A stretch of 64,000 bases of DNA from an uncultured Myxococcaceae bacterium (GTDB lineage: Bacteria > Myxococcota > UBA727 > JABDBI01): positions 639,020 through 703,019 of the forward strand of contig CAZWPE010000001.1 in assembly GCA_964635635.1 (NCBI GenBank). The letters are read 5' to 3'. Shown in pieces: positions 49,231 through 63,297 of this stretch; within the stretch, counting starts at the first letter, position 1; each line of letters opens with the position of its first letter. The position numbers and the translations under genes were made by a program. The notes under the pieces are model-generated. The model did not search any database. It saw nothing but the letters and a program-made list of their open reading frames with translations, and was not told the origin of the DNA.

Positions 49231-49303
49231 TCCGACGCCTTTTCGCCTTTTTCTATTCAGAGGATTGTAGCATAATAGATTCCTAACATATGCGTGTCAG
49301 ACG

Positions 49304-51148
49304 CTAATCCATGTCTTGGTTTGGGGGGATAAGTGAATCTGACTCATTACAGTATGAATAACCCCATGAAAGGCCTTGTTTGAACATGTGCTCGATTGCA
49401 AAGGGTTGTGACATCAGGCCCTTAGACCGATCATTTGATTGAGGGATATTGAGGTGATGTTTGAACGCGATTTTAATACCGAGTTCGAGCTGTTCTTTGA
49501 TTTTGGCTTCTGCCACACCGATCATTCGCATCATCAATTTCAAAATTTTCGTTTTAGTTTCAAGAGGAGTTTTAGAATGACGGAAGATAAAATTGAGTGC
49601 TTTCGCCTTGAGAGATGCGTGATTGTCAAGCTCACTCAGTTTATCAACCGCTTGTTCGGGTTCAATTTCATATCCTTCATCGAGCAAGGTTTTCAAAGCC
49701 TCAAGCCATGCTTGATCATCAGGAAGCCGATGATAAGCACTTGCCACATGACCAAAAATAACAGCCGAAGCAAAATAGTTTTTGCTCATCAAGATCGGCC
49801 GCACGGACTGAGGGCTATTTTGTTTAGAGTGCCAAAGTAATGAATGACCCAATGCCCGGTAAGCCATGTTCTCACTTTGAGTCATGTCTCCAAACTCCCG
49901 CATGGCACGAAAATGGTTGTTTTTGGGTGAAGCAAAAAATACCCTGAGGCTGCTTAAAAATCTATGGAGCTGAGAACCCAAGGTGTAGACTGGGTCAATT
50001 AGCGCAATCTGCTTAAGATGGGTTAAATGGTCTAAGAGCATCTTTTCATCAACCAAATCTAAAGCAAAGTGGGGACTTGTCTTTTCAATTCTGGCAAATG
50101 GAAAGTGAATGTAAGCATGTTGCAGAAAATCGCGTTCACCACTGAGCGGGGTTGCGTGTTCTCTAATTTTTAGCCTGTGTTGCTCCTGACTCTCCATGAT
50201 GCTTTCAACAGTTTGAGCTCCTGGGGCACCCGGACTAAGTTCTGGTCGCTTGCTTTTTGAAAACAGGCTTGCAAATTGGTCAAGTTCCTTGGGGTATGTT
50301 TCTGAGCCCGTTGTTTCAAATTCTTTGACGTTCCGCGTGTTAAATACTTGGATGTCTATTGCACTCAAACTAGAGGGATCAACATAGGCCGGCAGCTGAA
50401 AATCTGATGGCACATAACTCGTTCGATAAGCTTCAAGTTGAAGTGCCCTCATGTTTTTAAACAATTCACTGAATGACAAAGAAGGTGGTTTCGCTTTCAA
50501 TAGAGCTGACTTGTAAATACTATGTATAGTTGCTGAATTTAAAGCCATTTTATCGTTTCCGGTCGATACAACTGTGATTTCAGCGCCACTCTTTTTTGAA
50601 ATTTCTTCTAAAGCGAGGCGATTTTTTTCACGAAGAAAATTAGCGCCATAACAGGAGTTTAAAAAGAACACGATACGATTCATGATCGATGCATACCGTT
50701 CAATCGTTTGAAAGATCTCACTTTCAAAAGTTTTACTCCCTGATAGTTTCCAGCCTTCTGCTTCTAAAACACCGTGAGCTGTAACCACCATCACGAGCAA
50801 AGCAGAGTCTTCTGACGAAAGAGAGGCTTTCACATGACTGAACGGCACATACGTACCAGGGATATAGTCAGTGAGGGCATTCTCAGAAACGAAGTCAAAT
50901 ACATCAAAAAAGTTTTCTGGTTCTTTTACGCCCTCAACGTCTCTCAGGTCTGCAATGGTTTGAAAGCGATCGCCATATATGTCCCGAAGTGTTTTTTTAA
51001 ACAAAAGGCCAACATTCAGACGTTCTCCAATATCTCCATCGGTAAAAGAGCTCGAATGCAGGAATACTTTTTCAGCAGAAAAAGCATTGACCGACAAAAA
51101 GAGCAGAGCAAAAAACGTTTTTAGTTTATTTTTCATATATTTTATCAA
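49304..51148 (-). CDS. Secreted protein with N-terminal caspase-like (His-Gly ... Cys dyad) peptidase-like domain
   Basis: 614 aa. Signal peptide. VMVVTAHGVLEAEG followed by FFLNSCYGANF resembles the caspase/CHAT-type His...Cys arrangement. Probable start at the internal ATG (MKNKLK). Confidence 0.4.
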   Translation of the reverse strand: MIKYMKNKLKTFFALLFLSVNAFSAEKVFLHSSSFTDGDIGERLNVGLLFKKTLRDIYGDRFQTIADLRDVEGVKEPENFFDVFDFVSENALTDYIPGTYVPFSHVKASLSSEDSALLVMVVTAHGVLEAEGWKLSGSKTFESEIFQTIERYASIMNRIVFFLNSCYGANFLREKNRLALEEISKKSGAEITVVSTGNDKMALNSATIHSIYKSALLKAKPPSLSFSELFKNMRALQLEAYRTSYVPSDFQLPAYVDPSSLSAIDIQVFNTRNVKEFETTGSETYPKELDQFASLFSKSKRPELSPGAPGAQTVESIMESQEQHRLKIREHATPLSGERDFLQHAYIHFPFARIEKTSPHFALDLVDEKMLLDHLTHLKQIALIDPVYTLGSQLHRFLSSLRVFFASPKNNHFRAMREFGDMTQSENMAYRALGHSLLWHSKQNSPQSVRPILMSKNYFASAVIFGHVASAYHRLPDDQAWLEALKTLLDEGYEIEPEQAVDKLSELDNHASLKAKALNFIFRHSKTPLETKTKILKLMMRMIGVAEAKIKEQLELGIKIAFKHHLNIPQSNDRSKGLMSQPFAIEHMFKQGLSWGYSYCNESDSLIPPNQDMD

Positions 51149-51200
51149 TCAAAATTTAAAGATAAAAAATGATTGCCAGTAAATCTTAAATGTTTTCCTG

Positions 51201-51312
51201 CATCTGTCAATCCTGTTCTTTTTAAGCCGAATACCTTTGCAATCTGGCTACAAGCTTGCATTACATCAGTTCACTAGTGGTAATGGTAGTCAGACGCCTT
51301 TTCGCCTTTTCC
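51201..51312. repeat. Copy 1 of a ~100-bp intergenic repeat family ending in tandem motif (cagacgccttttcgccttttcc = RC GGAAAAGGCGAAAAGGCGTCTG)
   Basis: ~80% identical over ~100 bp to 63040..63146. Core agtggtaatggtagtcagacgccttttcgcctttt is shared with 53098..53166 (inverted). The 18-mer gacgccttttcgcctttt also occurs just 3' of tRNA-Ser (49232..49249). Confidence 0.5.
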
Positions 51313-51324
51313 GCTTCGATAGCC

Positions 51325-61450: not shown

Positions 61451-62530
61451 TTATGGCCGCGTATACCAGATCCCCCTACCCTGACCATGACGCAACAGAT
61501 GTCCCTCTGACACCAGTTTACTTAAGTGAAATTTGAGGGTGCTTTTAGGCGCACTTATTTCACCTTCAATTTCAGCCATAGTCAGACGGGTTCGATCTTC
61601 CAAAAGTTGATAGATTTTCTCCGATAACATAGGCAGCGATGGCATATTTGGGCTAGATTTCAGCTTCGCTTCCAGATTTCGTTTTTGCTTTTGAACGCAT
61701 TGTAGGAAAAATCTCAACCAGGCATCATAAACTGGCGTATCTTCTTTCAACGTTCCCTGAGTTCTTCGAAGCGCTACATAATAACGGTCTTTATCAGCTT
61801 CAACGATGGACTCCATGGAAGCATAGGGCACATAAAGATAGCCCGCTCGAAGCAGTAGAAGAGTTGTTAGAATTCTGGACAAACGACCATTGCCATCTTG
61901 AAATGGATGAATCGCTAAGAAATGAACGATGAAAATCCCAATAACAACCAATGGATGCATGCTTTTGTCTTCTAAATGCTCCCTTGCCCATTGAACAAGC
62001 TCCTGCATCGCGCGAGGGGTTTCAAATGGAGTCTCCGTTGAAAATACAATTCCAATGCTTTTCCCGTCTGCATCAAATGCTTCTACGTGATTTGGGAACT
62101 TTTTATAATCACCCCGATGCCGTTGGTCCTTCGAGACATACTGAAGCAACCTTGAATGAAGCTGCCTGATATGATTTTCCGTTAGGCGAAGTTCTTCAAA
62201 AGAATCATAAACAAGATTCATGGCTTCCGCATAACCCGCAACCTCTTCCTCATCACGTGTCTTGAATGAATGAAGCTCAAGTCTATCTAATAAAACCTCT
62301 ACCTCTTTATTTGAAAGCTTAACCCCTTCTATGCGGGTAGAAGAACCGACACTTTCAATCGTGGCGATTTTCCGAAGTTTGTTTAATCTATCGCGAGGAA
62401 TGTTTTGTGAATTTCGAAATTCACCTTTAAATTCATCCACTTCGCTCATCATCTGCACCATTTCTGATGTCAGCCGTATTTCAACCGGCAATTGCGCCAT
62501 TTCTAAGACTCCTTGGCCGATATTGGCCAT
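61451..62530 (-). CDS. Fic-family protein (AMPylase/phosphocholine-transferase fold) with C-terminal winged-helix
   Basis: 359 aa. Canonical Fic motif HPFQDGNGRLSR. Confidence 0.85.
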   Translation of the reverse strand: MANIGQGVLEMAQLPVEIRLTSEMVQMMSEVDEFKGEFRNSQNIPRDRLNKLRKIATIESVGSSTRIEGVKLSNKEVEVLLDRLELHSFKTRDEEEVAGYAEAMNLVYDSFEELRLTENHIRQLHSRLLQYVSKDQRHRGDYKKFPNHVEAFDADGKSIGIVFSTETPFETPRAMQELVQWAREHLEDKSMHPLVVIGIFIVHFLAIHPFQDGNGRLSRILTTLLLLRAGYLYVPYASMESIVEADKDRYYVALRRTQGTLKEDTPVYDAWLRFFLQCVQKQKRNLEAKLKSSPNMPSLPMLSEKIYQLLEDRTRLTMAEIEGEISAPKSTLKFHLSKLVSEGHLLRHGQGRGIWYTRP

Positions 62531-62570
62531 TATTGTCTAATACTAGCCAATCTTGCCCAAAAAGTCCATC

Positions 62571-63086
62571 TTAAAGACTTTTTAACCACTTTTCCCACGC
62601 AGCATCAAAGACATCTGATGCTTCAAGGTTTGGCCAGTGTCCTGTTTCACCGCAGTTAACGATGCACATATTTTGAGGTTGAGAAAACTTGGGCCACAGC
62701 AACAATGGAACACTGTCATAGTCCAGCTCACCAGCGAGTAACAACACGGGTATGGAGATTTGATTCATGCCCTGTGTGATATCGTGCCCGGGCAAAACAG
62801 TGCCGAAAAAGTGACCCGCTATTCCATTATCGATCTCAATGCCTCTCCATAGGGCTTCCAAAAAATCTCTCGTCACGTTAAAATCTTTCCAGTAACGAGC
62901 AGCATCTGCTTCGAAAAGGCGTCTGGCTATCGTAAAAGTAGTGGTAGTGGTAACCCGACGCCTTGTCAAGGTATTGTACGCAGACCCTTGTTGTAAGCCC
63001 TGAAAAAGTGTCGGGTTACCACGACCATTTCTTGAGCACTTTGAATACGCGAATTCAGTTCTTTTTAAAACCAAACATCTTTGCAA
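62571..63086 (-). pseudogene. Remnant of an alpha/beta-hydrolase gene (only C-terminal ~110 aa recognisable). The 5' part is replaced or overrun by repeat sequence.
   Basis: C-terminal IPVLLLAGELDYDS...VNCGETGHWPNLE matches the alpha/beta-hydrolase tail (catalytic His region). The N-terminal 60 aa of the ORF translate repeat DNA (TTTTT run, hairpin), with no nucleophile elbow. Confidence 0.4.
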
Positions 63087-63146
63087 TCTGCCTGAAAGCC
63101 AGCATCACATCTATTCACCAGTGGTAATGCTAGCCCGACGCTTTTT
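63040..63146. repeat. Copy 2 of the ~100-bp intergenic repeat family, with an additional partial copy and 14-bp inverted repeat at 62938..63018
   Basis: gttctttttaaaaccaaacatctttgcaatctgcctgaaagccagcatcacatctattcaccagtggtaatgctagcccgacgctttttc aligns with 51201..51312. gtggtaacccgacgc ... gtgtcgggttaccac form a long hairpin just upstream. Confidence 0.5.
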
Positions 63147-63297
63147 CTTTTTTTTCTATGATTACGGTACTCATTTTGAAAAATCATAACATTGTTCCTG
63201 ACTAAAAAAATTGTTTTGCTCGCTCAACGTGCATCTGGATACGTGTTTTCCAGCAATGAGTTTACATTAGACCAATGTTGACATAGCTAGATTTTTT

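Follow-up and report, generated by a model that had tools for sequence, protein, structure and literature searches.

What is a short sequence found directly behind a tRNA-Ser gene doing in front of several other genes over the following 14 kb? The question arises in a stretch of 64,000 nucleotides, here called the window, from the genome of an uncultured Myxococcaceae bacterium (assembly GCA_964635635.1). Three elements of about 100 bp with a shared motif had been described there and ascribed to a promoter or operator, a leader RNA or a miniature inverted-repeat transposable element (MITE), with an integrated island as the possible setting. The three elements do lie where they were placed, and the 18-mer common to them does recur directly 3' of the tRNA-Ser gene. 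They belong to a larger family which, with moderate confidence and judging from the sequences, we regard as relics of small non-coding MITE-like elements with inverted-repeat ends. The feature looks like one of an ordinary kind, namely decayed copies of such elements, and not like a new regulatory signal.

A family of short elements with common ends

The repeats occur far beyond chance. The 18-mer GACGCCTTTTCGCCTTTT has five matches in the window against 0.05 expected, two of them exact (49234-49251, which begins 3 nt past the tRNA-Ser gene, and 51293-51310) and three degenerate (52881 on the minus strand, 52965 on the plus strand and 53099 on the minus strand), and the 23-mer core AGTGGTAATGGTAGYCNGACGCC is found at four sites, 51276(+), 53111(-), 62940(+) and 63120(+), with none expected. 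Over 92 nt, the long copies A (51219-51310) and B (63063-63154) share 77% identity (nhmmer E 1e-34). An nhmmer profile built from these two places every copy in the window within 49.2-63.2 kb and none in positions 1-49000. About 90 kb of this genome was covered in total for repeat copy number, the additional sequence being short Logan contigs of run SRR16481186 (L004, L007, L017 and L021), of which L007 reaches 4.7 kb past the window and L017 is a different contig of the same organism. Eleven termini were recognized altogether, nine in the window (14 kb) and two in L017, and the remaining ~55 kb sampled from the same organism holds none. The elements of the window are the following:

49231..49260, minus strand: F, a solo terminus, which reads AAAGGCGAAAAGGCGTC on the minus strand and has the tRNA on its inner side
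51213..51312, minus strand: A, ~100 nt, which has one end only (terminal motif at 51293-51310)
52880..52984: X, from a second subfamily, 105 nt with two ends
53098..~53166, plus strand: C, diverged and likewise with one end only (terminal motif at 53100-53116)
62913..62967: G-D, a two-ended mini element of 55 nt
63002..63154: E-B, a two-ended element of 153 nt and the fullest copy

The list of copies in the original prediction was therefore real in its three members and incomplete, missing G, D and E as well as the second type, X.

Aligned from outside to inside, the 11 termini present a common outer motif with discrete boundaries, and the flanks outside it are unrelated. The tandem AAAAGGCG-AAAAGGCG-TC forms the outer edge of the element in every terminus, and the terminal repeat as a whole spans ~17-25 nt and consists of two octamers in tandem, A(A/T)AGGCG-AA(A/T)AGGCG-TC. 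Inward of the outer motif, NGGCTACCATTACCAC is found in A, B, C, D, E and G, and the X copies have a different interior. By their sequences the copies fall into what appear to be two or more subfamilies with a common terminal inverted repeat, type A with the interior GGCTACCATTACCACTA and type X with the interior AGGCRCGCACATKTTRGCAACTGGCATC.

The motif stands inverted at both ends in four elements: X, its homologue in L017, G-D and E-B. In G-D the ends are G, which is GAAAAGGCGTC on the plus strand (62913-62923), and D, which is GACAAGGCGTC on the minus strand (62936-62971); E-B is made up of a left terminus E (63002-63033), an A-like body and a right terminus B (63137-63154), and its termini pair over 14+6 bp. 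These four termini, G, D, E and B, lie within a 250-bp cluster in alternating orientation, and the full set of termini is present in both orientations. A and C are one-ended, F is a solo end, and an end-to-end hairpin is absent from A (z 0.21).

X provides the comparison between loci. Its termini in the window are ACAGGCGAATAGGCATC on the left (52882-52898, plus strand) and AAAGGCCAATAGGCGTC on the right (52965-52981, minus strand); those of the homologue are ATAGGCGAATAAGCGTC (L017 position 3163, plus strand) and ATAGGCGAATAGGCGTT (3296, minus strand), inverted repeats that match at 16-17 of 17 positions. The two copies are 88-90% identical (blastn, 88% between L017 3158-3226 and window 52877-52945), and the L017 copy carries ~50 nt extra inside, giving ~160 nt as against 105 nt in the window. 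An end-to-end hairpin is predicted for both (z -3.58 in the window and -3.15 in L017). Outside the motif the two loci have unrelated flanks and a different gene context, and the L017 locus lies beyond the window and its 4.7-kb extension. With type A, X has only the terminal motif in common.

Bacterial MITEs are non-coding, mostly intergenic elements of <200 bp (or 50-800 bp) with inverted ends of at least 10-15 bp (PMC2229807, PMC11602168). The elements described here are intergenic and 55-165 nt in size, with mechanical open reading frames (ORFs) of 30-41 aa only over the copies at 52.7-53.2 kb, and terminal inverted repeats are found in X (window and L017), G-D and E-B and are missing from A and C. 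Copies sit at non-homologous sites, X at two loci of the same organism and A and B at unrelated sites. No copy occurs at the tRNA-Ser/dnaE locus of the closest relative or at the loci of other relatives, which are non-collinear with the window past the tRNA or the DEAD-box promoter. We propose that a transposase encoded elsewhere in the genome would bind the tandem octamers at both ends and, acting in trans, move or copy the elements into intergenic DNA, after which the copies would decay to one-ended and solo-end fragments. Similar copies in both orientations could in addition serve as substrates for recombination and deletion. Such events between copies would explain both the truncated hydrolase gene at G-D and the synteny breakpoint inside F, which are described below.

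Several observations weigh against a MITE-like origin. No target-site duplication is identifiable on the two-ended copies; the flanks of X are A-rich (GTAAA|...|AAAG and GTCAA|...|AAAG), which in two copies only is ambiguous. No transposase or insertion sequence (IS) with matching ends was found in the ~90 kb covered. Nine of the 11 known termini lie within 14 kb, so that a truly dispersed multi-copy distribution is not established, and an empty-site/filled-site pair was not obtained, the relatives' loci being non-collinear. A and C have one recognizable end only. From the tRNA flank on, F, A and B are directly oriented, which also suits an explanation by att-type recombination. Finally, the sister species has the half-motif ACGCTTTT at the same place past the tRNA, and F may consequently be in part an ancestral trailer rather than an element end. 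It is the combined lack of a target-site duplication, a partner IS and genome-wide dispersion that keeps our confidence at a moderate level.

The clustering also bears on the idea that a single ancestral sequence was spread by segmental duplication and inversion, with no transposition involved, leaving local recombination debris. The concentration of nine termini in 14 kb, four of them in the alternating 250-bp cluster, would be accounted for in this way, and the clade is prone to gene-level indels and rearrangements, with single-gene indels elsewhere in the window too. However, the octamer motif sharply delimits the copies, whose flanks are unrelated on both sides, X recurs in L017 in a different gene context outside the window and its extension, and the subfamilies share their ends only, as expected when a protein recognizes the ends. 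We therefore hold local duplication to be quite improbable as the origin of the family.

Two further candidates were discarded. The core can be read as SGNGSxTPF and KRRxxTITT on its two strands, and no ORF or family supports it as a coding relic. A diversity-generating retroelement was rejected on inspection of the alignment, in which the A/B mismatches are not adenine-specific; a Pfam scan of ten ORFs of the region found no reverse-transcriptase domain. Outside this organism, a pattern scan of species-representative genomes, the source genome not being among them, gave 3 chance matches only, metagenome contigs gave 8 chance matches with unrelated flanks, plasmid and viral contig collections gave none, and nothing was found in the literature under the accession numbers.

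The tRNA-Ser junction and the island question

The first copy of the motif adjoins the only tRNA of the window:

49141..49230, plus strand: tRNA-Ser(TGA) with the CCA encoded (ARAGORN; 63 bits in Rfam)
45305-48790, minus strand: dnaE

The closest relative of the window organism is the sister genome GCA_964484075.1 in contig L008, whose DnaE is 98% identical in protein and ~84% in DNA; further relatives by DnaE are uncultured metagenome-assembled genomes labelled Myxococcota, Deltaproteobacteria or Myxococcaceae (87%, 85% and 79% identity). L008 carries an identical tRNA-Ser gene, likewise adjoining dnaE, and this gene is the last feature in common before synteny breaks. The two sequences are identical through the tRNA, continue as TCCGACGCCTTTTCG in the window and CTCTACGCTTTTATG in L008, and are unrelated afterwards; homology stops at 49242, 12 nt past the tRNA and inside the motif, which places the breakpoint within the solo end F. 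In L008 a 215-aa hydrolase gene comes 13 nt past the tRNA, and PTR2 transporter, DUF192 and FtsW genes come next; none of these is found in the window or the 4.7 kb beyond it, and synteny was not seen to resume up to the end of the L008 contig, 3.9 kb after the tRNA. In a relative, tRNA-Ser is thus directly followed by different genes, and the abrupt stop of homology together with this change of content indicates that the region is variable and accessory-like. A repeat-mediated inversion carrying the L008-type hydrolase to 62.6 kb is excluded, since the hydrolase remnant of the window is unrelated to the hydrolase of L008. The ancestral state cannot be polarized, as four more distant relatives (L005, L006, L023 and L024) have no tRNA-Ser beside dnaE.

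These findings support an integrated island only partly. In its favour are the different genes after tRNA-Ser in L008 and the foreign affinity of the ABC-F and DEAD-box genes described below. Against it, no integrase was found and no recombinase domain was seen among the ORFs of 49.3-63.8 kb and of the following 4.7 kb, and the shift in guanine-plus-cytosine (GC) content across 49.2-63.2 kb is small (0.451 vs 0.429). No tRNA-derived att repeat was found, as the repeat begins 1-3 nt past the CCA and contains no tRNA sequence, and ARAGORN and Rfam find no second tRNA fragment in the window. Nor does anything mark a right boundary at 63160, where the region had been thought to end.

A version of this idea that does not depend on tRNA sequence is that several islands entered one after another at the 3' flank of tRNA-Ser through the action of a site-specific recombinase; F would then be attL, A and B would be attP-like sites where tandem islands join, and the core would be CNGACGCYTTTTC. 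The direct repetition of F, A and B from a point 1-3 nt after the tRNA would agree with this, as would the extent of the match between F and the other two, which is confined to the core and the right-hand side, the relation expected of attL and attP; homology to L008 ends within the core, past which L008 has other genes, and the genes of the region look accessory or foreign. The inverted copies (C, E, G and the left end of X) and the two-ended hairpin elements do not fit, however, and an element with the same ends stands at an unrelated locus in L017. The tRNA 3' end is not part of the repeat, the stretch 49.2-68.4 kb holds no gene for an integrase or recombinase, no attR joined to an L008-type flank was found, and the GC shift is small. 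On this balance we consider att-type scars an unlikely explanation.

A more speculative possibility is that a recombinase or transposase with a specific preference for the tRNA-Ser trailer may recognize the octamer ends, in which case the elements might represent a new non-autonomous kind, assembling and reshuffling an array of horizontally acquired genes in which no integrase resides. The half-site ACGCTTTT is present in the trailer even in the sister species, and the array would include the Legionella-like DEAD-box helicase, ABC-F, Fic and AAA ATPase genes. We give this proposal little credence relative to decayed MITE-like copies of the ordinary kind.

The comparison with L008 revealed other differences at the level of single genes. 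An agmatinase-like gene (44315-45306), located between dnaE and a DnaQ-like exonuclease gene, has no counterpart in L008 and constitutes a single-gene indel. A near-perfect palindrome at 42112-42185, with arms of 36 nt that are 92% complementary around a spacer of 2 nt, borders a segment (~42096-43317, with a 371-aa gene) that is absent from L008. Separately, the 39-nt sequence ATCGTCATTGCGAGGAGGCGTAGCCGACGCGGCAATCCA occurs twice, at 6630-6668 and, inverted and 28 kb away, at 34864-34902 (90% complementarity), and may represent a second short repeat family.

Promoters and genes beside the repeats

The positions of A, C and B upstream of genes were what first suggested a regulatory role, and the genes and sites concerned are these:

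49304-51148, minus strand: gene of a secreted-looking 614-aa protein with a signal-peptide-like N-terminus
51183..51210, minus strand: promoter-like site of the 614-aa gene, TTGACA-16-TAAGAT, a consensus match only, just outside the conserved part of A
51325-52785, minus strand: gene of a secreted-looking 486-aa protein with a signal-peptide-like N-terminus
53204..53231, plus strand: promoter-like site of the DEAD-box gene, downstream of C and inside a stretch conserved with L017 and L018
53239-54447, plus strand: DEAD-box helicase gene
62571..62912, minus strand: 3' remnant of an alpha/beta-hydrolase gene (probable), truncated where G-D begins

If the elements were shared cis-regulatory modules, the octamers would be bound by a single transcription factor, and the genes of the 614-aa secreted protein and the DEAD-box helicase would be regulated together with their neighbours. 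A, C and B do stand 65-160 bp upstream of minus- or plus-strand ORFs with the octamers gene-distal each time, promoter-like sites lie directly gene-proximal to A and C, and tandem direct octamers resemble operator half-sites. The promoter-like hexamers of the 614-aa and DEAD-box genes are nonetheless located between repeat and gene, outside the repeats. A is flanked on one side by the promoter-like site of the 614-aa gene and on the other by the 486-aa gene, whose stop codon (51325) it follows at a distance of 13 bp. C is located 73-140 bp before the start of the DEAD-box gene; the homology of this locus to L017, which carries a paralogue (1270-2478, 82% aa identity, same source contig, P0127), and to L018 (GCA_023248545.1), which carries an orthologue (87% aa), begins at window position 53203, 36 nt before the ATG. 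As this is past C, the element does not belong to the conserved upstream sequence of the DEAD-box gene, and it is present upstream of neither the paralogue nor the orthologue. Directly adjoining the outer end of C is a (CTG)n microsatellite (53080-53097), exactly where the Logan contig L004 breaks.

The remaining copies depart further from what an operator would require. The gene downstream of B is a truncated remnant, F is downstream of a tRNA, and the ends of X, G-D and E-B are inverted 55-150 nt apart, unlike operators; moreover, the other 49 kb of the window has no copy upstream of any gene. The stated agreement in orientation towards the downstream gene does hold for A, C and B, with the reservation that the gene at B overlaps the repeats as a remnant, but three agreeing orientations out of three are not significant and carry no weight, given that the full set of termini occurs both ways. 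Co-regulation through the octamers thus appears very unlikely to us.

A leader RNA fares no better. At a permissive threshold, Rfam finds only the tRNA over 48-64 kb, a common fold of A and B reaches -3 and -6 kcal/mol on the two strands with compensatory pairs absent, A and C singly fold no better than shuffles, and no terminator-like site coincides with any copy. Of the alternatives offered in the original prediction, the promoter and leader-RNA readings are consequently not supported, and inverted ends, unrelated loci and unconserved sites favour the MITE. The presence of elements upstream of three genes is most simply explained by insertion being tolerated there, and not by a shared control element.

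The hydrolase remnant illustrates how the repeats and a gene may meet. The mechanical ORF continues through G-D and E to 63086 and has no Pfam match. Its identification is probable and rests on weak matches of the last ~65 residues, to 2xmz (residues 202-259 of 269, E 0.098) and PcaD (E 0.018). Past the repeat cluster, L007 8147-13320 (window 63298 onward plus 4.7 kb) contains an unusual series of GNAT acetyltransferase genes, six or seven in number, accompanied by a PEMT/ICMT-like methyltransferase and a LysE exporter.

Among the other genes of the region, which look accessory, the 614-aa and 486-aa proteins have no Pfam or NCBIfam family, and the 486-aa gene has the lowest GC3 (0.27), being the only clearly low gene. 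The DEAD-box helicase is 74-76% identical to Legionella RhlE/RhpA proteins, which, together with the paralogue, suggests that the gene was exchanged with Legionella-like bacteria and later duplicated. An ABC-F gene resembling those for ribosomal protection (57443-58828, minus strand) has no close orthologue; its best matches reach 63-64%, and the next are from the amoeba symbionts Finniella, Holospora and Nucleicultrix (55-57%). One 63% homologue (L022 589-1986) is clustered with APH, GNAT, resolvase, AlpA and AbiE genes. Both the ABC-F and the DEAD-box gene look to be of foreign affinity.

Comparable repeat families and implications

The elements are best likened, by architecture and not by sequence, to Correia/NEMIS of Neisseria, RUP of Streptococcus pneumoniae and ERIC of enterobacteria. 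These too are short, non-coding and mostly intergenic (here 55-165 nt), have terminal inverted repeats (here ~17-25 nt), and adjoin promoters and gene ends. Correia elements exist in 155- and 105-bp forms (PMC2229807), and long and internally deleted variants are likewise seen here, E-B having 153 nt and G-D 55 nt, and X 105 nt in one copy and ~160 nt in the other. The present family differs in that its ends are two tandem octamers and in showing no TA or other target-site duplication; its copy number derives from ~90 kb only, with no partner IS identified. To REP/BIME clusters, which RAYT transposases mobilize, it is similar in that short repeats of alternating orientation (G, D, E and B) are gathered within 250 bp of extragenic DNA beside a gene end. 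In contrast to them, a single unit is not palindromic, the conserved GTAG-plus-stem is lacking, the units are longer with distinct interiors, and no RAYT gene is seen.

Islands at tRNA genes with att direct repeats offer a further parallel, in that accessory-looking variable genes begin right after the tRNA gene and a short junction sequence recurs in direct orientation further in. The repeat here nevertheless lacks the tRNA 3' end, there is no integrase, inverted copies and hairpin elements are present, and no right-hand junction with an ancestral flank was found. Finally, the Rickettsia palindromic elements (RPE) and the QMITEs of Coxiella are palindromic repeats of ~100-150 nt in host-associated bacteria, some copies of which are read through by ORFs, as is the case here for the 62571-63086 ORF across G-D and E. 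The read-through here, in contrast, looks like an artefact of a truncated gene and not like an in-frame insertion into a functional protein.

For annotation, recognizing these repeats would account for long intergenic regions, for the truncated hydrolase gene and for the loss of synteny downstream of tRNA-Ser in this uncultured lineage, which is low-GC and labelled Myxococcota. It also cautions that the motif should not be read as the signal of a regulon. Should a partner transposase be found, the octamer ends would define a new MITE/IS pairing, and they would also provide a marker of genome plasticity in this lineage, which appears to exchange genes with Legionella and amoeba symbionts.

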